Source of the DNA: Acidobacteriota bacterium
GTDB taxonomy: Bacteria > Acidobacteriota > UBA6911 > RPQK01 > JADFOI01
NCBI GenBank assembly: GCA_963663035.1
Contig: OY760074.1
Span: 1,184,001-1,248,000 of the forward strand
Length of the DNA stretch: 64,000 nt
Direction of reading: 5' to 3'
Part shown: piece by piece, positions 3,374 through 24,569 of the stretch
Layout: each line of letters starts with the position of its first letter
Numbering within the stretch: position 1 is the stretch's first letter
Notes under the pieces: model-generated
The model's database searches: none
What the model was told of the DNA's origin: nothing
Seen by the model: the letters and a program-made list of their open reading frames with translations, nothing else
Program-made: the position numbers and the translations under genes

Positions 3374-3583
3374 CCGGTATTATGCATAGATTGTCTACTG
3401 CAGTGCCACAATCATCCACGCTGACTGCGTTGTGCGACCCGCACATGCGGGTACCCCTTGGGCTCCTCGGCGTACTACATGAGTACGCCTGCGGGGCCCG
3501 ACCCGCAAGCGGGTGCCCTCACACGCCTTGTCATCGCGGCGCCTGCGGCACTTCGTCACGAAAACCTATGCATAATCCCGGCT
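3372..3583. mobile_element. MITE-like element (~210 bp) with 18-bp terminal inverted repeats and internal hairpins
   Basis: agccggtattatgcatag (3372-3389) vs ctatgcataatcccggct (3566-3583), 17/18 inverted match; internal palindromes acccgcacatgcgggt, ggcgtactacatgagtacgcc, acccgcaagcgggt; TAG on both sides. Confidence 0.8.
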
Positions 3584-3596
3584 TAGGAGGTCAACC

Positions 3597-5066
3597 ATGA
3601 GAAAATCCCTGCTTTTCCGTTCCCTGCCAGTCCTGTTGATCCTGCCCTTCTTACTTTGGTCCAATCTTGTGTATTCTCAAACGGCCCGCCGGGCCCTGAA
3701 TACTGCGATAGGGATGGAAGAGGAAGGCAACCACGAGCAGGCCCTGAGTATCTATGAGCGCTTGATCGATGGAGATCAAGACGAGGAGGTCACCTTACTG
3801 GCCAGGATTCGAGCCGGCACGATTTATCTGAATCAGAAACAGGACTATGCTCAAGCAGAGCAGTTTTTTGAGAGCGTGGTGTCCCACGTCGAGTATTCGG
3901 AGCTGGCCTCTGAAGCCCTCTTCAACCTGGGCAAAATTCGTTATCAGCAGGCTCGTACCGTGGAAGAGATTCAGGATGCTCTTGGCGAATTCCGGCAGGC
4001 CATTGAAATCTATGGAGACACCTCGGCGGCCCTGGATTCCCTCATGTTTGCAGGTATGATTGAGGAAAACATGAACAACCTCTCACGGGCCGTCTTTTAC
4101 TATCAGACTGCTTTCTACCAGTACCCGGAAAGTGAATTGGCCTCCCAGGCTCAGTTCAGGTTGGCCCGATGCTACATGTTGATGGGATCGATCGGGGAAG
4201 CCCTGGAAGAGCTGCAGAAGGTTCGACTCAATTATCCCCAATCCCCCGAAGCCCGGCTGAGTCTGGATGCTTCCTCCAGCATCTATCGTCTCTTCTACTC
4301 AAACAAAATCACGGAGCTCTATCGTCAAAGCGCCATCACCACGCCACAACTGGATAACCCCACTCAAATTGAGTTCGTCTCAGACGGCAATCTTTTGCTC
4401 CTGGACAAGAACAGAGTCCTCACCATAGGAGTGGATGAGAAAACCGTAAACGCCGGCCGAAGCAACAGCGCCAGCATCTTTGTGGATAGAGAGGGTAGGG
4501 TGCACAACGTGACCGACCGTGCTATCCGGAGTGGCGCGCAAAACATCCTGGTCCAGTTTCAGGACAAGGATGATCTCAAGGTCTTTGACAAGATCAAAAC
4601 TTTTGTCCAGAACTCGTTTGGAGAAGGGTATGTGGCGGGAGACAAAGAGGGAATTTGGGGACTTCAGCTGCAAGGCCGCAACTTTCTAGCTGTTCCCCTG
4701 CCTGGGGCTAGGATTGGCAAGGTCGCTCGTCTTCGCGTGGACAGCCGTGGTGCTCTATATGCGCTGGACCAGGATCGCCGGCTTTTGAACATCGTGGATC
4801 GCGACGGCACCTTGCTCAAGCAGATCAATGCCAAGAGCTACGGGATTGACCGCATCCAGGACTTTACCATCGACTTTTTCGATAATCTCTACTTGCTCAA
4901 CAGAGATGGCGGATTTGTCGTGCTACAGAATCTGTACAGTGCCGAAGACAAACTCGCAGCATTGGCCCGAGTTCCGACCACCGTGAAGAAACCCAAAACG
5001 ATCGGTGTGGATCATGCGGGTCGGGTCTACGTCGCTGGAGAAAAAAATCTCGAGAGTTTCAGCTGA
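3597..5066 (+). CDS. Secreted TPR-repeat protein with C-terminal NHL/beta-propeller-like region
   Basis: RBS aggagg; signal peptide; repeated TPR helices (ALFNLGKIRY, AQFRLARCY); C-terminal 'VDSRGALYALD', 'GVDHAGRVYVA' repeats. Confidence 0.8.
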   Translation: MRKSLLFRSLPVLLILPFLLWSNLVYSQTARRALNTAIGMEEEGNHEQALSIYERLIDGDQDEEVTLLARIRAGTIYLNQKQDYAQAEQFFESVVSHVEYSELASEALFNLGKIRYQQARTVEEIQDALGEFRQAIEIYGDTSAALDSLMFAGMIEENMNNLSRAVFYYQTAFYQYPESELASQAQFRLARCYMLMGSIGEALEELQKVRLNYPQSPEARLSLDASSSIYRLFYSNKITELYRQSAITTPQLDNPTQIEFVSDGNLLLLDKNRVLTIGVDEKTVNAGRSNSASIFVDREGRVHNVTDRAIRSGAQNILVQFQDKDDLKVFDKIKTFVQNSFGEGYVAGDKEGIWGLQLQGRNFLAVPLPGARIGKVARLRVDSRGALYALDQDRRLLNIVDRDGTLLKQINAKSYGIDRIQDFTIDFFDNLYLLNRDGGFVVLQNLYSAEDKLAALARVPTTVKKPKTIGVDHAGRVYVAGEKNLESFS

Positions 5067-12072: not shown

Positions 12073-14439
12073 TCAAGGCATTAAGTTCATCCGCCGCAGC
12101 AGATCCTGGAAGCGAGGGTCGGCATGGAGGGGGTCGAAGAAGGGATTACTTTTGATGAAAGCAACTTGGGGATCGCGTTTACCGACGGCTTGGGTCAGCC
12201 ACTCCAGCGCAAGATCCTCCTCGCCGACGTGCATATAGAGACTTGCTTTATGCCACGCAGGGAGTTGCTCTGAATCTCTGAGGGCCGCTATGGCCTCAGC
12301 TCGATTGCCGGAAGCCAAGGAGCGTAAGACAACAGGAGTAATCGATACATTAGGATTTAAGGAAGCCAATCTTTCTGACTGGGCAATAGCCTCTTCGTGC
12401 ATTCCCTTTTCCCAATACGCCCATGTAAGGATTTGATGTGCACCTGGGTGATCTGGATTCAGTTCCAAGGCCCTTTGTAATTGTTCTATGGCCTCATCGT
12501 ATTGGCCTTTCCAAAGGAACACTACTCCGACAAGCCTGGTTATCTCGGGTGAGAGGGGATCAAGCGTTTGAGCCTTACTCGCTTCCTCAAGCGCTTCATC
12601 TAACCGACTCTGAGTCATCAAGAACGCTCCGTACCAGTGGTGAGCAGTTGGGTAGTTTGGATTGAGTTCAATGGCTCGTTTGAGGTCGGCCTCAGCTGCA
12701 CTCCACTTCCATTCGTAAAGAGCTTTGATGTACCCCAATGAGGTGTGGGCCTCAGCGAGGCTGTCATCGATTTCCCGTGCCCTCTGTGCCGCGGCTTTTG
12801 CCAGTGGGAAGGCATCCTCTGGAGTGCGGTGGTAGTAGTAGGCAAGTAAAGTGTAAGTATCAGCAAGTCCAGCATAGGCCTGGGCATACAAGGGATCCTC
12901 GTCAATCGCCTCATTGAAGAGTTCAACCGCCCGCTCGAATCCGTCCCTGTTTCTCTTGTTCCACCAAAAACGGCCCTCCAGGTAGCTCCGATAGGCCTCA
13001 GGATCCTGTGTGCCCTGCTTCATCATCTGACTCTGGTCCTCTCCGCTGAGCTGCCAGCGAAGGTTGTCAGAGACTTCCATAGCGATCTTCTCCTGCACTG
13101 CCAGGAGTTCAGTTGCCTTTTGGTTGTACTGTTCGCCCCACAGCACCCTGTCGGCTTCCGTATCTATCAGTTCGACATTGACCAACAGGTCCTCACCCTG
13201 TTGGTTCAGCCTCCCCAGCAGCAAGGCACGGACACCCAACTCTTCTGCCACTTGTCGGGAGTTTATCTCTTGGCCTTTGTAATGGAGGACCGACGAAAAG
13301 GGAATGACCCTCACCTGCGGCAACTGGGAAAGGCCGTAGATGATGCTCTGAGCAGCCCCGTCGCTGAGATATTCCATTTCGGGGTCGTCACTCATGTTGA
13401 CGAAAGGTAAAACGGCAATAGAAGTGATGGCCTCCTCTGGTGAGGTGGAAGTAAACGGCACAAGCAATGCCAGAAGTAAAAGGCCAAGGACCACCACTCC
13501 CCCAGCCACCGCAGGCCAGAGGTAACTCCGCTTCGCGGGGGTCGCCGCAGCTACTGCTGAGGTGGCTACTGACTCACCTGATGTATCTCTCTTCAGCCTC
13601 TTGAGGTCCAGCAGCAACTCTTTTGAAGTTTGGCAACGAATCTCCCGATCTTTTTCGAGGGCTTTGTTGATGATGCCTTCTAACGGATCAGGCACATCTG
13701 GATTCAACCTCACAGGAGATGTGGGAGCCTTGGACAGAATCTCATTGAAGACAACCGCAGTCGTGCTTCCCTGAAATGGCAAGCTCCCCGTCGCCATCTC
13801 ATAGAGCACCACACCCAGGGAGAACAGATCTGTCCTGGCATCCAGCTCCTCACCCCTGGCCTGCTCAGGCGACATATAGGCTACCGTCCCCAAGGCGGTG
13901 CCAGGATTGGTGAGAGCCTCCTCCGGCACCTGTGCCGTGGGCATCTTCGAGTCCACCCCGGTCTGCTCCTGGGTCAGCTTGGCCAGTCCAAAGTCCAGCA
14001 CCTTGGCGTCGCCCCGTTGGGTGATGAAAATATTGCCCGGCTTGATGTCCCTGTGAACGATGCCCTTGGCGTGAGCGGCGTCTAAAGCATCGGCAATCTG
14101 AATCCCCAGATCCAGGATCTCATCCGTTGGCATGGAGCGGCCCTGGATGCGGTGGGTGAGAGTCTGGCCCTCCAGGTACTGCATGACAAGGTAAGGCTGG
14201 CTCTTATGCTGACCGATGTCGTAGATGGCACAGATGTTGGGATGATCCAGTGCCGATGCCGCACGAGCTTCTCTCTGGAAGCGTTCCAGTGCCTGTTTGT
14301 TCTGGGCAAACTTCTCAGGCAGGAACTTCAGGGCCACATTGCGGCCGAGCCTGGTGTCCTCGGCCTTGTAGACCACACCCATCCCTCCGCCGCCGAGCTT
14401 CTCTGTGATTTTGTAGTGGGAGATGGTTTGGCCGATCAT
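12073..14439 (-). CDS. Hanks-type Ser/Thr protein kinase with TM segment, TolB-N-like domain and TPRs (intact)
   Basis: GGGGMGVVY, VALK, HRDIKPGN, DFG, YMSPEQ; TM; 'SIAVLPF'; TPRs; C-terminal DPRFQDLLRRMNL. Confidence 0.95.
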   Translation of the reverse strand: MIGQTISHYKITEKLGGGGMGVVYKAEDTRLGRNVALKFLPEKFAQNKQALERFQREARAASALDHPNICAIYDIGQHKSQPYLVMQYLEGQTLTHRIQGRSMPTDEILDLGIQIADALDAAHAKGIVHRDIKPGNIFITQRGDAKVLDFGLAKLTQEQTGVDSKMPTAQVPEEALTNPGTALGTVAYMSPEQARGEELDARTDLFSLGVVLYEMATGSLPFQGSTTAVVFNEILSKAPTSPVRLNPDVPDPLEGIINKALEKDREIRCQTSKELLLDLKRLKRDTSGESVATSAVAAATPAKRSYLWPAVAGGVVVLGLLLLALLVPFTSTSPEEAITSIAVLPFVNMSDDPEMEYLSDGAAQSIIYGLSQLPQVRVIPFSSVLHYKGQEINSRQVAEELGVRALLLGRLNQQGEDLLVNVELIDTEADRVLWGEQYNQKATELLAVQEKIAMEVSDNLRWQLSGEDQSQMMKQGTQDPEAYRSYLEGRFWWNKRNRDGFERAVELFNEAIDEDPLYAQAYAGLADTYTLLAYYYHRTPEDAFPLAKAAAQRAREIDDSLAEAHTSLGYIKALYEWKWSAAEADLKRAIELNPNYPTAHHWYGAFLMTQSRLDEALEEASKAQTLDPLSPEITRLVGVVFLWKGQYDEAIEQLQRALELNPDHPGAHQILTWAYWEKGMHEEAIAQSERLASLNPNVSITPVVLRSLASGNRAEAIAALRDSEQLPAWHKASLYMHVGEEDLALEWLTQAVGKRDPQVAFIKSNPFFDPLHADPRFQDLLRRMNLMP

Positions 14440-19175: not shown

Positions 19176-19970
19176 CTAGCGCGCCAGCCCCATCACCGGC
19201 TGTTCACATTGCGCCAGGACGGAATCGACTGCTTCTCTTTCCCTGTTGTCCATGGTGAGACGCCAATCGTTTTTCGCTATGATCCATGCCCTCACATATC
19301 CGCAGTGGAAGTCTGGATTGGGCGGCAACCAATCCGCTGGGCTTCTGTCTCGTTTGGACCTGTTTGCAAATGAAGAAATCGCCGTTAGCATCCTTGGATA
19401 CGATAGATCATTGGCGTACTCATTTCGTAGTTTCGCGCTCCACCGGCTTGCTCCACTGCGGTGTGCCTCAGCAAGCGGGATAAGATGATCGATGTAGAGG
19501 TCCCTGGGATCGGTGAAGGTCTCGCCTGTGTAGGGGTCGAGCCACTGCCCTGAGACGACGCGACAACCTCTGGAGTCCAGCTCGACTGGACCGATGCTTT
19601 CCGCGATCAACACTTCCTGTCGAGTGTTCTGGCAATCTCCGTCCTCGTCCGTCCACCCACCATAAAGATCACGGTCGTATGGGACTGGAGACAGGGCAGA
19701 GCTACTTTCGCCAGTGCTGACCTCAAGTGCGCGAAGTGCCTCCTCTTGGGAGCTGAAAGATTGTCCAGCCAGTGGCCCACTGTGGCAATGGTACCCACCT
19801 CGCTGGCTATCGTGATGGCAGCCCAGTGAGTCAGTGACACCACCATGGGCCACAGCAAGAGATGTTGAGGCCAGAGGCAGGCATATGAGTAGAACAGTGT
19901 AACGAATAGCTAAGAGAACGGTTTTCGATGATGCCTCTTGACCTTCGTAGCTTGACCCCAAAAAAAGCAT
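19176..19970 (-). CDS. Secreted YHYH-like motif plus DUF1524-type HNH endonuclease
   Basis: 'HGGVTDSLGCHH...YHCH'; 'CQNTRQEVL', 'IDHLIPLAEAH', 'ANRSKRDRSPADWLP'. Confidence 0.8.
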   Translation of the reverse strand: MLFLGSSYEGQEASSKTVLLAIRYTVLLICLPLASTSLAVAHGGVTDSLGCHHDSQRGGYHCHSGPLAGQSFSSQEEALRALEVSTGESSSALSPVPYDRDLYGGWTDEDGDCQNTRQEVLIAESIGPVELDSRGCRVVSGQWLDPYTGETFTDPRDLYIDHLIPLAEAHRSGASRWSAKLRNEYANDLSYPRMLTAISSFANRSKRDRSPADWLPPNPDFHCGYVRAWIIAKNDWRLTMDNREREAVDSVLAQCEQPVMGLAR

Positions 19971-21099
19971 GATTCCATCTTAACCTTTAATTTCCTCTTC
20001 CTGCAGAACTCCAAGAGTTAAAAGGCCAAGGAAGCCTACATGCGTTCACAAGTGGAGGTTCAGCCGCTCAAGGCTGAAGGTTTATCCGCAGCAGATAAGG
20101 ATGAGAAGGCCAAACTCCTCAGAGGCAGTCTCTAAAATGAGCTGCAGTTTAGAGGAACGCAGTCCCAAAGCTTGGGCTGCAAAATATTAACTCTTTAGCA
20201 AAGGAGCTTGGCCATGAAAGATTCTATCAAAGAGATCACACAGATTCCGGAACTGACGATGGGTTTGGACCTGGGAGACAAATTTTCCTACTACTGCATC
20301 ATCGACAAGTCAGGACAGAAAGTGGAAGAAGGTAGGGTGAAGACTCAACGACGAGCCATGGAAAGGTTCTTCAAGTCTCAGCCAAAAATGCGGGTGGTGT
20401 TGGAAACGGGAACCCACTCTCGGTGGGTGCAAGCGATAGCCAAGGAGCAAGGACACGAAGAAATCGTGGCCAATCCCCGACAGGTTCGACTCATCAGCCA
20501 GAACCGAAAGAAATCGGACCGCAAGGATGGAGAGCTTCTGGGACGTTTAGGAAGAGTGGATCCCGAGCTGTTGTATCCGATTCAGCATCGGGGCGAAGCC
20601 GCTCAAGCGGACCTGGCGGTGGTTAAAGCTAGAGATGAGCTGGTGAGAGCCCGAACCCGGCTGGTCAATCCTATCCGAGGATCTGTGAAAGCCTTCGGGG
20701 AGCGTCTGCCCAGTTGTTCCACAGAGGCTTTTCCCCATCGGGTCAAACTCCACATTCCGGGTTGCCTGAAGATGGCTTTGGAGCCCCTGCTGGAGATGAT
20801 CCAACAGCTCACCGCACAGATCCGCCAATACGATCGGCAGATTCAGCAACTGTGCCAGCAGAAGTATCCGGACACCGAGAACCTTCAGCAAGTTCGAGGA
20901 GTAGGACCGATCACAGCTCTGGCCTTTGTTTTGACCCTCGAGGATGCCCATCGGTTTGGAAGAAGTCGCCAGGTGGGAGCGTATCTGGGGCTCACTCCCA
21001 GACAAGACCAATCCGGGAATCGGGATCCTCAGTTGAGGATTACCAAAGCCGGCGACCGATTCGTTCGCAAACTACTGGTCGGTAGTTCCCAGTACATCC

Positions 21100-22366
21100 T
21101 GACCTTGCCCCCTAAAACGAGTCCAGTTTGAATGTTAGGATTTCCGGTTTAGGAAGGAGGCAAGGATGGCAGGGAAGCGGTTTAGGGCAGAACAGATCAT
21201 CATGAAGCTGCGTGAGGCAGAGGTGGGTCTGGCCCAAGGACAGAGGGTGGGACAGGTGTCGAAGCAGATGGGGGTGAGCGAGCAGACCTACTACCGGTGG
21301 CGCAAAGAGTACGGAGGGCTCCGGTTGGACCAGGCCAAGAGGTTGAAGGTGTTGGAGAAGGAGAATACCCGGTTGGAGAAGCTGGTGGCGGATCTGTCTT
21401 TGGACAAGCAGATCCTGAAGGAAGTGTCCTCGGGAAACTTCTAGGCCCGGCGAACAGGAGACGAGCGGTGATGTGGGTACGAGAGCGATTAGGAGCAGAG
21501 CGAGTCTCCGAACGTCGGGCCTGCCAAGTGCTGGGACAGGTTCGATCGACCCAGCGAAGGGAAAGGCAAATTCCCGATGATGAGGCCCGATTGGTGGCCC
21601 GGATGGTGGAGTTGGCTACGCAATACGGGCGTTATGGCTACCGGCGGGTCACGGCGATACTTCATGGGGAAGGGTGGAAGGTGAATCCTAAGCGGGTGGA
21701 GAGGCTGTGGAGACAAGAAGGGCTGAAAGTCCCGTCCAGACAGCCGAAACGAAGGAGGCTGTGGCTTAATGACGGTTCCTGTGTTCGGTTACGAGCGGCT
21801 CGCAAGAACCACGTCTGGAGCTATGATTTCGTGCATGAACGGACCCATGATGGGCGAGCCTTTCGGCTATTGACGATCCTGGATGAGTACACCAGAGAGT
21901 GCCTCGCCATTGATGTGAAACGGCAGATGAATCACCAAGACGTGTTGGACCGGCTGGCGGAGTTATTCGTTGATCGGGGAGTGCCTGAGTTTATCCGGTC
22001 CGATAACGGATCGGAGTTTACGGCACAGGCGGTCCGGGACTGGCTGCAGGCTGTTGGGGTAAGGACCTTGTACATCGAGCCGGGCAGCCCCTGGGAGAAT
22101 GGGTACATTGAGAGTTTCAACGGGAAACTACGGGATGAGCTGCTGAACATGGAGATCTTCGACACGCTGGGGGAAGCCAAGGTGTTGGTAGAACGCTGGC
22201 GGAGGGATTACAATCAGATCCGGCCTCACAGCGCCTTGGCCTATCGGCCGCCGGCGCCAGAGGCCAAACTACCTAGGTCGCAGGCACTGGATCCAATCCC
22301 TTGGAGTGGACTTCAAATGGTCCCGGGTCTAGCATAGAGGGTGGACTCGTTCGTGGGGGCAGGTCA
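21100..22366 (+). mobile_element. IS3-family element (IS407-like), 4-bp target duplication ATCC
   Basis: TG...CA ends; ~25-bp imperfect TIR; ATCC at 21096-99 and 22367-70. Confidence 0.93.
21166..22337 (+). CDS. IS3 transposase OrfA (21166-21444) / OrfB joined by -1 programmed frameshift
   Basis: HTH OrfA; slippery GGGAAAC at 21432-21438; OrfB 'WSYDF', 'SDNGSEF', '[15 protein letters not shown]'. Confidence 0.92.
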
Positions 22367-22567
22367 ATCCTGGGACCTTTTGGCTCGGATTGTGACTTGC
22401 GACGCTATGGGGAGAGGATTGCTTCCAGAGGAGGAAAAAGCGCCAAGAAGCGAGCCGTGGTGGCGGTGGCTCGTAAACTCTCGGTCCTGCTGCACCATCT
22501 GTGGGTCACAGGAGAGACCTATGAACCGCTGTACAACAATCAAGAGTACCTGGAAGGGGCTGCCTAA

Positions 22568-22881
22568 GAGATTGAACCCAGAAGGGATTCCGGTGAACGT
22601 GACCCGCCCATGGAGTTAACCTCAATGATCCAAATGCCCAGTTCGGGTGACTGCGAACGACCTGCTGTTCCTTCCTTCGGAAGAGAACGAGCCGCAGATT
22701 GCAGCGCCCAGTTTGACGAACCCTTACATGCACCCAGTCCAAATCAAGGGCTGAAAAAGAGTGCGGATGGAAGCAAGGCAAACAAAATCAGCATCACTGG
22801 ATCGATTAAGCGAACTCCCATCAGCTGGCTTAATCACCCGGTCCCGGACTTTTGACCGCCAAGTCGGTCTTGACAAGAAAG
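22568..22881 (+). ncRNA. Putative bridge/seek RNA of the IS1111 element
   Basis: Two stem-internal loop-hairpin units. Loop strands gacctgct(g) 22659-67 and gccgcag 22691-97 match the target. ccttacat 22722-29 and atggaag 22767-73 match the predicted circle junction. RNA boundaries are not determinable. Confidence 0.75.
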
Positions 22882-22895
22882 GGCCTTCTCATGGA

Positions 22896-22935
22896 AGCAG
22901 GTCTTGGAAGCGAGGGTCGTCGCGGAGGGGGTGGA
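22896..22935 (-). repeat. Kinase 3'-end relic, upstream half (PLRDDPRFQDL); continues at 20094-20068 (LLRINLQP*)
   Basis: Joined flanks translate HPLRDDPRFQDLLLRINLQP*, vs the intact kinase DPLHADPRFQDLLRRMNLMP*. Confidence 0.85.
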
Positions 22936-22999
22936 TCCTCCCCCGACTTCTTGAGCTCAGTTCGCTAGGTGAGCTTGGCGGACTAACATCTATCGCTCG

Positions 23000-24333
23000 C
23001 TACTTTGCACAGGTGCGGAACCCCGCGAAAATGTCATTTCGGTAGGGTCGGAAAAAGTTGCGATAGCCATTGCAAGCAAGACGAGAGCGAGTGGCCCAGG
23101 CGCCGCCCTTTAGTACCTTACGATACCCAAACCAAGGGGCAGAATATTCCTGATAAGGAAAATCCACAATGTACCCCGGAAAAGGATAAAAAGGGGAAGC
23201 GGTCCACTCCCACACATTGCCGATCATCTGGCGGCATCCAAAGGCGCTATCTCCAGAGGGAAACGCAGCAACATCGGCGCATCCCAGAGCACGTGAATCC
23301 AGATTGGCACGATCAGGCGTCGGAAACTCATCTCCCCAGGGATACCGTCTCTGGCCTTCAGCGATTCCTCTACCGCCGCTGGAAGGTTTCCCCATGGCGG
23401 ACATTTCCCATTCTGGCTCCGTGGGGAGGCGTCTCCCCGCCCACTGACAATAGGCTTCGGCTTCGTACCAATTGACATGGATTATGGGAGCGTTCTCTTC
23501 AAGGGGGACCAGCTTGTTGAAGTGCCGACGCAACCATCCCTTCTCACCCCGGCTCCAGTAGAGAGGATGCTGGGCTCCAGCCTTGGTCCGCCAAATCCAC
23601 CCTTGAGGACTTCACAGTTCCTGCCGCAGATATCCTCCATCATCCACGAACTCCGAGAACTCGGCGTTGGACACAGGAGCACGATCTATTTGAAAGGAAG
23701 CGGTTTGCACCGGATGTGCCCACTTCTCATTATCGAAGACAAAGGGAAGGTCCGGCGTAGCTCCGAGTTGAAACGTGGCTTCTGGAATTTCCACGTCTCC
23801 AGGCAAAGGGCCTTCGCTCAACTCAGCGGGAGTTCCTTCTGTGTGAGCGGTGGAAAGCTGAGGCAGGGGGTACTCCAGCGGCTGTCTCATATAGGTAAAA
23901 GCCTCCCCATGCATATCCTCGTGAAACACTGACAGAAGATACAAATAGGTTTCCTCGGCGCTGGGTTCACGCGAGGCTAAACGTTCGACAACTAACTTCA
24001 ATGTGTGCTGCATGTAATCCAGAGTTTTCTCTCTTGAAGGGAGAGGTAAAGACCAGCGATCATCGTGGTCAACTGTGAATGAGTTATAAGAATTATCTCC
24101 GTCTTCCATAATCGGATCGATATGATCCAGGCCGCGCAAGAGAAATATGTCGTAAAAAAAGCAACGTGTCCCAGCTCCCAACGAAACGGATTAACGATCT
24201 CAAGCAGAGGGACGTTTAGTTGGTCAACTTCCAGATCGGTGAGCAGTTCCAACGTTCAATCACGAGCATCGTTGACCAGTTGGAGAAGCTCCGAGGCTGG
24301 AAGCTTGAAGTGCTTATCCTTTAGATTGTTCAT
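23000..24333 (-). pseudogene. EgtB/SenA-like sulfoxide synthase (DinB + FGE-sulfatase domains), disrupted
   Basis: 'VNPFRWELGHVAFF', 'FHEDMHGEAF', 'FDNEKWAH', 'RLPTEPEWE', 'GNVWEWT', 'FAGFRTC' spread over 3 frames; in-frame TGA at ~24257. Confidence 0.88.
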
Positions 24334-24357
24334 ACTAGTGAATTCCCCCACAGAGGA

Positions 24358-24483
24358 TCGGGCAGCACCTTAATGGCCACTTCACTGCTGAGATTAGTGT
24401 CCTGGGCACGATGAACCTCTCTCATGCCGCCCCTGGCCAATCTTTTCAGGGATCTTGTAGTGAGACAGAACATTCCCGACCAC
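24358..24483 (-). pseudogene. Ser/Thr kinase 5'-end relic (~41 codons)
   Basis: VGNVLSHYKIPEKIGQG/GMREVHRAQDTNLSSEVAIKVLPD, with 1 extra G; promoter TTGCCT-18-TACCAT at 24531-24560. Confidence 0.85.
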
Positions 24484-24569
24484 AGTGGGCTCCCCGTCTC
24501 CTTCAACGTGTGGGACGTGACTCTTTGTAGATGGTAGACCTTCGAGGGCGGGGAAGGCAATGGTGATGT

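Follow-up and report, generated by a model that had tools for sequence, protein, structure and literature searches.

What directs an insertion sequence (IS) to one short block of codons? The question is raised by a locus in an Acidobacteriota genome assembled as a single 3.59-Mb contig, of which we analysed positions 1,184,001–1,248,000 (64,000 nucleotides, here called the window). In the window, an IS110-family element of the IS1111 type interrupts a remnant of the 3′ end of a Ser/Thr kinase gene. We found that the genome holds four copies of this element with identical junctions, that two segments of its 3′ non-coding region match the two flanks, and that in distant relatives both segments change together with the flanks. 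On this evidence, the element is very probably RNA-guided, with a guide aimed at codons of the kinase tail.

Element, junctions and recombinase gene

The element and the sequences that adjoin it in the window are as follows.

20095–22897, + strand: IS110-family (IS1111-type) insertion sequence, 2803 bp here because of an IS3-family insertion inside it
20101–20111, + strand: left subterminal inverted repeat ATGAGAAGGCC, with the 6-nucleotide extension ATAAGG before it; the repeat is conserved in homologues
20208–21099, + strand: recombinase gene, N-terminal 297 codons, encoding the DEDD RuvC-like domain and most of the Tnp domain including GLTPRQDQSG
21100–22366, + strand: IS3-family element of 1267 bp (orfA HTH_Tnp_1, orfB rve), which cuts the recombinase gene
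22373–22567, + strand: recombinase gene, last 64 codons and stop, contiguous with the N-terminal part in the 362-amino-acid open reading frame (ORF) of copy B
22882–22892, + strand: right subterminal inverted repeat GGCCTTCTCAT, followed by GGA and the core AG
20068–20094, − strand: target relic, downstream half, with the final 9 codons (L-L-R-I-N-L-Q-P-stop) of a C-terminal motif of the kinase type
22898–22935, − strand: target relic, upstream half, with the codons for ...(I)HPLRDDPRFQDL(L) and without a kinase body upstream

Besides the window copy (A), three further copies (B, C and D) lie at about 66.4–68.0, 87.8–89.4 (copy D) and 842.1–843.7 kb of the genome. They are 99–100% identical, uninterrupted at 1531 bp, and each contains a 362-amino-acid ORF; matches to PF01548 in the whole genome were confined to these four copies (4/4). 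All four have the junction tccgcagcAG / IS / caggt in one orientation. At the window copy, the left flank ends ...tccgcagcAG at 20094 and the right flank starts caggtc at 22898, and AG is the only sequence common to flank and element end. The empty site reconstructed for this copy is gcagcAGcaggtc, and the 15 bases tccgcagcAGcaggt at the junctions are common to all four copies. Copies A, B and C share longer flanks, which on the other strand read ...(W/Y)DP(L/F)RDDPRF(H/Q)DLL and then L R (M/I) N L x P stop, whereas for copy D the shared sequence is limited to the 15 bases about the core. The placement of the element in a kinase 3′-end relic, made in a preliminary description of this DNA from its sequence, was thus borne out, since the flanks of the window copy spell kinase-type last codons. 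The same description had likened the core to the CT core of IS621. The core dinucleotide at 20093–20094 is AG on the + strand and CT on the − strand; CT is therefore correct for the kinase strand only, and because the transposase strand reads AG the likeness to IS621 is superficial. Across the eight insertions in the motif, here and in related genomes described below, and copy D, orientation was always the same, with AG alone shared and no duplication beyond the core.

In domains, repeats, non-coding region, motif and insertion mode, every feature that we tested was that of the IS110 family and its IS1111 group, in agreement with the original assignment. The element starts with ATAAGG and then ATGAGAAGGCC and ends in ...CATGGAAG, that is, GGCCTTCTCAT followed by GGAAG; ATGAGAAGGCC and GGCCTTCTCAT, 11 bp each, are perfect inverted repeats in subterminal position. 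With the core assigned to the left end, the terminal extensions measure 8 and 3 bp; with the core assigned to the right end, they measure 6 and 5 bp. According to PMC11187229, IS1111 elements have subterminal repeats of 7–17 bp (usually 11–13) with extensions of 7 and 3, sometimes 6 and 3. The extension is one base over this norm, and most homologues have exactly 7 and 3 (AGATGGG and GGA). Non-coding DNA amounts to 330 nucleotides downstream of the gene (22568–22897) versus about 113 upstream (20095–20207), as the IS1111 group requires. The split recombinase ORF matches DEDD_Tnp_IS110 (PF01548, 2.4e-17) and Transposase_20 (PF02371, 2.6e-19), both above the cut-off, and the intact 362-amino-acid protein scores 224 bits against NCBIfam NF033542, 'IS110 family RNA-guided transposase', for which the cut-off is 140. 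The intact ORF contains GLTPRQDQSG, an instance of the GL-P----S(t)G motif that PMC11187229 gives as an IS1111 feature. Likeness to the solved IS621 and ISCro4 transposases is limited to the C-terminal domain (E 3e-7 to 5e-7). Residues D21, E66, D104, D107 and S269 are invariant in our recombinase alignment (A1) and, judged by motif pattern, are probably equivalent to the catalytic residues of IS621.

The IS3-family element in the window copy is flanked by a 4-bp duplication, ATCC, at 21096–21099 and 22367–22370. Its previously given extent, 21100–22370, was close: the start holds, and the element itself ends at 22366, with the duplication running to 22370. Because the recombinase gene is split by this insertion, the window copy cannot make its own recombinase.

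A predicted guide RNA and its covariation with the flanks

The 3′ non-coding region contains the following predicted RNA features.

22641–22793, + strand: predicted bridge/seekRNA core, with stem-loop 1 as target-binding loop and stem-loop 2 as donor-binding loop
22657–22666, + strand: 5′ target guide ACGACCTGCT (RNA ACGACCUGCU), complementary to the core AG plus 8 nucleotides of the right flank on the IS top strand
22691–22699, + strand: 3′ target guide GCCGCAG followed by AT, in the same sense as left flank, core and first two IS bases
22722–22729, + strand: 5′ donor guide region CCTTACAT (RNA CCUUACAU), of which the CCTTA part is complementary to IS bases 2–6 (TAAGG)
22767–22773, + strand: 3′ donor guide ATGGAAG, with the same reading as the right end of the IS followed by the core (7/7)

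All motifs quoted in the preliminary description were found where it had placed them. The two stem-enclosed internal loops that it proposed are also predicted by ViennaRNA, which folded 22630–22800 into two stem-loops, each with an internal loop. Loop 1 is closed by a stem of CTGCGA (from 22651) and TTGCAG (from 22699), encloses a hairpin at 22667–22688 and displays the segments GACCTGCT (22659–22666) and GCCGCAG (22691–22697). Loop 2 is closed by GTTTG (22711–22715) and CAAAC (22779–22783). When we applied RNAalifold to an alignment of 75 homologues, 17 pairs were kept, mainly in these basal stems, and 6 of the 17 showed compensatory changes, with both partners of one pair altered in 21 sequences. 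The segments that vary between lineages are framed by the conserved stems GACUGCG...GCAGC and GCAC...GUGC-GGAUGGAAG. The distal hairpins were more stable than mononucleotide shuffles (median z −2.2 and −1.9); of 74 distinct sequences, 42 and 33 had z below −2.

We compared the target-loop segments with the flanks of each copy. The 5′ target guide matches 10/10 bases at copies B and C, 9/10 at copy A and 7/10 at copy D. The 3′ target guide matches 6/7 in all four copies here and 7/7 in sister genomes (loci L006/L099 and L008), where sites with a full match to both guides (10/10 and 7/7) are occupied by this IS. The 12/13 match claimed earlier holds both for the occupied site and for the site in an intact kinase gene at 12093–12105. 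The sister copies came to light in a scan limited to a single genome for each species, which showed the same IS at 93–96% nucleotide identity in other Acidobacteriota assemblies. In an order-level search it was present in four of the six other genomes of the genus and in 6 of 76 genomes overall, including this one; that search gave one weak match in a second genus and none in the other 15 families.

The sister copies fix the register of the guides. Their left junctions read ...tccgccgcAG in two loci (7/7 to the 3′ guide) and tccgccacAG in a third. Since gccgcAG stands at the junction in these genomes, with caggtc... on the other side, the register is settled in favour of the one first proposed. 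A shifted 3′-guide register, with CCGCAG pairing 3 nucleotides farther from the core, is ruled out by the position of gccgcAG directly at the sister junctions. The sister 5′ guide is AAGACCUGCU, with A where this genome has C. The right flank caggtcTt, which matches the sister guide, occurs in 3 of 4 sister flanks, and here 2 of 4 flanks have the G that matches C. The C/A difference in the guide and the G/T difference in the flank are one small compensatory guide/target change. We also observed that about 20 nucleotides past the kinase stop (gggacgattctacccaccac, IS strand) are common to three sister insertion loci (L006, L007 and L008), and the repeated unit in these genomes may extend past the gene end.

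Covariation was also seen among distant homologues. A metagenome scan with a four-sequence profile provided the best 80 of 551 confirmed relatives, at 51–60% protein identity. Both repeat arms were present at IS-like spacing in 67 of 92 loci, and of 95 sequences inspected, 80 had a recognisable RNA module. The test comprised 54 loci with both junctions, falling into 22 target classes; L011 was dropped because its left end is missing. On its own flank the 5′ guide matched a mean of 5.45 of 8 bases, versus 3.51 on the flanks of others, and the 3′ guide matched 4.09 of 6 versus 2.29. For either guide, the observed fit exceeded that of all 100,000 permutations, even though one-base register shifts lower some of the 'own' scores and so work against the test. 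Examples of 5′ segments and their flanks are CUUGCGCAC with tgcgcaag (L009), UCCGCGUCU with acgcgga (L012), GCUAGCUCU with agctagc (L027), UGACUCGCU with cgagtca (L040) and UAAUCGCCU with gcgatta (many loci); left flanks are likewise repeated in the 3′ segment. Guide/target covariation in homologues, named at the outset as a test of the idea, was thus found for both guides.

Two further observations concern these homologues. The largest subfamily, from soil and sediment metagenomes (for example, L059, L066, L072 and L081), inserts at ttgacgtaa(a/c)cAG / gcgattacac..., and within it small guide variants follow small flank variants. A 51%-identical relative in a deltaproteobacterial assembly (L010, at about 3541–3670) has a non-coding region of about 125 nucleotides that keeps a donor-type AAUGGAAGCAUG segment without a target loop; it is perhaps degenerate, or else served in trans.

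The donor loop gave a mixed picture. Of the two matches to the circle junction claimed earlier, that of the 3′ segment stands (7/7), whereas that of the 5′ segment is weak in this element alone. In several homologues, although not in all, the 5′ segment follows the left extension (TTAGA/TCTAA, GTAAA/TTTAA, ATGAG/CTCA). The RNA variant AUAGAAG, a G-to-A change, goes with CATAGAAG ends in all three lineages that have such ends (L012, L027 and L096). Beyond the core, the target loop agrees with the start of the IS: position +2 is identical in all 34 distinct combinations and position +1 in 22 of the 34, which recalls the handshake guides of IS621 (PMC11208158). A corresponding match in the donor loop was considered and rejected: its CA equals the first two flank bases in this element, but such a match held family-wide in only 17/34 and 8/34 combinations.

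The programmed site and the sites occupied

The window also contains an intact member of the gene family from which the target derives.

12073–14439, − strand: intact 788-amino-acid Ser/Thr kinase-TPR paralogue, with a Pkinase domain (4.4e-51) and TPR repeats, ending ...DPRFQDLLRRMNLMP

Read along the strand of the host gene, the programmed site has the sequence ACGACCTG-CT-GCGGC, corresponding to the H/Q-D-L-L-R-R codons just before the stop. Because these codons are conserved in a family of paralogous kinase-TPR genes, of which about nine are full-length in this genome, there are many near-identical sites. An exact search for GACCTGCTGCTGCGG gave 7 sites in the genome, and 41 when as many as 2 mismatches were allowed. 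Those that carry the motif cease to be alike just past the stop codon, which argues for a coding origin and against an extragenic repeat. The programmed 15-mer itself has 20 sites with 2 or fewer mismatches, versus about 10.6 expected from base composition, and 7 of the 20 lie in the motif; one is the unoccupied near-target in the 788-amino-acid kinase gene (12093–12107, 2 mismatches in 15). The empty sites, when rebuilt, differ from the programmed 15-mer at 1 position for copies B and C, at 2 for copy A and at 3 for copy D. Apart from the B and C sites, only one core-intact site in the genome (2595765) matches with 1 mismatch. In contigs assembled from four RNA libraries (three studies), there are many motif ends without an interruption, reading ...ttcatccgccgc followed by agcaggtc..., a perfect target. 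Fragments of related RNA modules occur in these contigs too, among them the C-to-A variant of the guide. At the junction, the host-gene frame reads GAC CTG CTT CCA TGA, giving ...DLLP-stop with 7 residues lost, as had been expected of an insertion altering the last ~7 residues.

We then asked what the occupied sites are, with 1.3–3 kb of flank available at each. The open frame running into the IS spans 36, 79, 46 and 44 amino acids in copies A–D, and 16 (L006/L099), 92 (L007), 35 (L008), 72 (L011) and about 26 (L100) in the sister genomes; tblastn found no kinase body upstream of copies A–D. All nine occupied sites therefore lie outside intact genes, eight in short 3′-end relics and one, that of copy D, in an unrelated near-match, and nine sites are too small a sample to tell selection from a better guide fit of relics or from decay after insertion. 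Of the proposal that the recombinase targets a multicopy protein-coding motif, the programmed site stands, consisting as it does of D-L-L-R-R codons, whereas insertion into a live gene was seen at none of the nine sites. Insertion of other copies at unrelated sequences had been named as evidence against the idea; three of the four copies are in the kinase motif, and copy D is in unrelated sequence.

Copy D differs further in that its right end reads CATAGAAG while its own RNA reads AUGGAAG. It is possibly an off-target and now mismatched copy. Half-match recombination, the subject of a recent preprint, may by analogy provide a frame for so poorly matched a copy.

Fragments of the kinase family are common in this genome. 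N-terminal fragments (about residues 9–80) lie upstream of the C-terminal relics, 1.4 kb from copy A (window 24339–24495, − strand) and 2.2 kb from copy B (genome about 64.05–64.19 kb). At copy A, a split gene of the FGE-sulfatase type (23000–24181, − strand) lies between the N-terminal fragment and the relic, and at about 2,137,273–2,137,497 of the genome an N-terminal fragment directly abuts a C-terminal relic; in such fragments only the two most conserved gene ends survive. Relics of about 60 nucleotides of the kinase 3′ end are numerous (for example, at 3510, 68359, 80785, 1677026 and 2882403, and in the flanks of L008 and copy B). Several of them share one upstream limit, immediately before GCGACGACC, which hints at a site-specific process rather than random deletion. 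We considered recombination at a pseudo-target as the source of these limits, as GGTCGT occurs twice in the flank, but in an informal comparison the limits were off any core position.

Proposed mechanism, alternatives and related elements

Starting from the observed anatomy, copy number, identical junctions, guide/flank complementarity and covariation, we propose the following course of events. The recombinase would be supplied by the three intact copies and would bind an RNA of about 150 nucleotides transcribed from the 3′ non-coding region. The 5′ strand of loop 1 would pair with the IS top strand over the core AG and 8–10 nucleotides of right flank, and the 3′ strand with the bottom strand over 5 nucleotides of left flank and the core, two more bases reading into the left end of the IS. 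Loop 2 would read the abutted IS ends likewise, and recombination at the AG core would insert the circularised IS in one orientation without duplication beyond the core. That the RNA is made and bound, that circles form and how strands are exchanged we infer from the published behaviour of the family.

Several observations weigh against this interpretation. The window copy is non-autonomous. In this genome, each of the four copies occupies a site one mismatch off the 3′ guide (GCAGCAG versus GCCGCAG), and two core-intact sites that are perfect for that guide (80783 and 1378389, 2 mismatches in 15) are empty. The single-sequence fold showed no significant gain over shuffles (z −1.44 and −1.83). 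Scoring with covariance models, which the preliminary description had recommended, lent no support: a scan of 19900–23100 with Rfam 15 at E up to 10 gave no bridge-RNA match and four chance-level matches (E 3.9–7.7), whether Rfam holds a bridge-RNA family not being established. A promoter and terminator scan of 20050–22950 found no promoter in the non-coding region; its matches, one promoter-like site inside the IS3-family element and one terminator-like site on the wrong strand, were no more than in shuffles. The RNA evidence consists of assembled contigs from RNA libraries that possibly contain DNA, and speaks for presence rather than for transcription, ends or strand. In the donor loop, the 5′ segment is matched at only 6/8 positions in this element, the G-to-A change at the right end of copy D is unmatched by the RNA of that copy, and the bases after the core fail to follow the target flank (17/34 and 8/34). 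Although the single fold is weak, both guides track the flanks in about 75 homologues, so the reading of the region as a bridge/seekRNA is strongly supported in silico.

The covariation bears most directly on the possibility that the complementarity is a coincidence, the protein alone reading the site and the region being a 3′ untranslated region, a terminator or a small ORF. The weak single-sequence z-scores and an 81-codon ORF (22610–22855) that overlaps the region would fit such an account. It is nevertheless scarcely credible given that guides and flanks covary over 22 target classes (0/100,000 permutations), that the stems undergo compensatory changes while the loop segments vary freely, and that a non-coding region of this kind is essential and programmable in the IS1111-type genetics reported in PMC11187229. 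A slightly better case, if still a very improbable one, can be made for the conserved flanks being part of the mobile unit, through wider boundaries or about 30 nucleotides of carried flank, so that the 'target' likeness would be element DNA. The occupied sites do share more than the ~15 nucleotides covered by the guides (26–40 nucleotides on the right and about 27 on the left), and there are many short relics whose upstream limit recurs near GCGACGACC. However, the motif is uninterrupted in intact kinase genes, in unoccupied relics and in RNA-library contigs that span the empty site; relic lengths vary between copies, conservation ends at the stop codon, and copy D lacks the extended flank. 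We therefore rejected an IS that carries its flanks.

A more serious alternative accepts RNA guidance but holds that the IS persists only in dead kinase 3′ fragments or chance look-alikes, with the coding origin of the target a historical accident and insertions in live genes absent or selected out. We give this not quite an even chance. It accords with the short open frames (16–92 amino acids) at 9/9 occupied sites, with the lack of a kinase body upstream of copies A–D in the tblastn search, with the site of copy D, which has no kinase motif and only 15 nucleotides in common with the others, and with four of the ~9 full-length paralogues holding unoccupied, core-intact sites with 2 mismatches (381421, 1196107, 1378389 and 3283687). 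The nine sites come, however, from only 4–5 genomes within a single genus, and several of the assemblies are fragmented; the sites with the best match here happen to be relics, and guide fit alone could explain the choice; and the many intact motif ends with perfect 3′-guide sequence in RNA-library contigs indicate a large live target pool in which insertions are maybe unsampled. In a further reading, the IS lineage could have adopted the last codons of an expanding kinase-TPR family as a landing pad kept uniform by protein-level selection in paralogues and in different species, its presence being tied to decay of the family, either because insertion with its ...DLLP-stop end starts gene loss or because copies survive only in relics; in the boldest form, the IS would help to make and spread the ~60-nucleotide relics. 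We consider this unlikely.

The RNA-guided element proposed here resembles the IS1111 elements with known seekRNAs (ISEc11, ISPa11, ISKpn4 and ISPst6), as presented in PMC11187229, in its DEDD transposase, GL-P----SG motif, ~11-bp subterminal repeats with asymmetric extensions and long non-coding region downstream of the gene. In IS1111-type seekRNAs, the complement of the top strand lies 5′ of the match to the bottom strand and the two overlap at the insertion point, the reverse of the IS110 type (same source); the guide order here is the same. One orientation, the absence of duplication beyond the shared core and the reprogramming of each lineage to another site are common to both. By the same account, the left extension here is 8 rather than 7 nucleotides (core counted) and the transposase has 362 rather than the usual 330–350 amino acids. 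The transposase is only ~25% identical to those of IS4321/IS5075 by tblastn, the best plasmid-borne relative reaching 35.5%, and the IS5075 non-coding region showed no sequence likeness to the RNA here. With the IS621 bridge RNA (PMC11208160 and PMC11208158), the predicted RNA shares the two loops, one for target and one for donor, each reading both strands around a 2-nucleotide core. It differs in lying at the 3′ rather than the 5′ end, in the reversed guide order, in the long subterminal repeats and in the AG core on the transposase strand; the protein can be aligned over the C-terminal domain only (E ~3e-7), and a handshake-like match in the donor loop is unsupported family-wide.

The mechanism is one already published (Durrant 2024, PMC11208160; Siddiquee 2024, PMC11187229), and what was known of it is unchanged. 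The mildly unusual feature is the origin of the target in a coding motif. The natural targets that we saw named in the literature comprise REP elements, attC sites, the ends of transposons and a 'short linear target'. Repeat-targeting elements are known for REP sequences (ISPa11, ISPpu9/10 and IS621), attC sites (ISKpn4/ISPst6) and Tn21 ends (IS4321/IS5075), and like them the element here has a short multicopy target that offers renewable sites. Unlike theirs, this repeat owes its similarity to conservation of the last codons at the protein level, and the likeness stops at the stop codon; in contrast to the REP, attC or transposon-end targets described for IS1111 elements, the motif is coding-derived, and the element is known from sequence alone. 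Our literature search found no IS110/IS1111 element described with a conserved coding motif as target; the supplementary target tables of Durrant 2024 and Siddiquee 2024 may list such cases. A multicopy target thus need not be an extragenic repeat, as a conserved codon block can serve. The analysis adds a natural IS1111-type bridge/seekRNA lineage from Acidobacteriota and from soil and sediment metagenomes, with ~75 aligned RNAs and 22 natural reprogramming events. This homologue set helps to define the IS1111-type registers: a 10-nucleotide 5′ guide including the core, a 7-nucleotide 3′ guide and 2 nucleotides into the IS end. It also raises the question of how far such elements are tolerated in live genes, where none was seen among the nine sites here and in the sister genomes.

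Three minor observations concern the surroundings and ends of the element. The IS3-family element is present in more than 50 near-identical full-length copies in the 3.59-Mb genome, a very heavy IS load that suggests recent expansion and ongoing gene decay. The IS1111-type element is adjoined by a 264-amino-acid ORF with a GmrSD_C (restriction endonuclease C-terminal) domain (19176–19970, − strand). Near its right end is a perfect, outward-facing TTGACA hexamer (22870–22875), which recurs in L010 and L012 and is TTGACT in L009. By analogy, this hexamer is a candidate −35 box of a promoter formed at the junction on circularisation; it lies 22 nucleotides from the element end, a longish spacing for a junction promoter of the ISEc11 kind.

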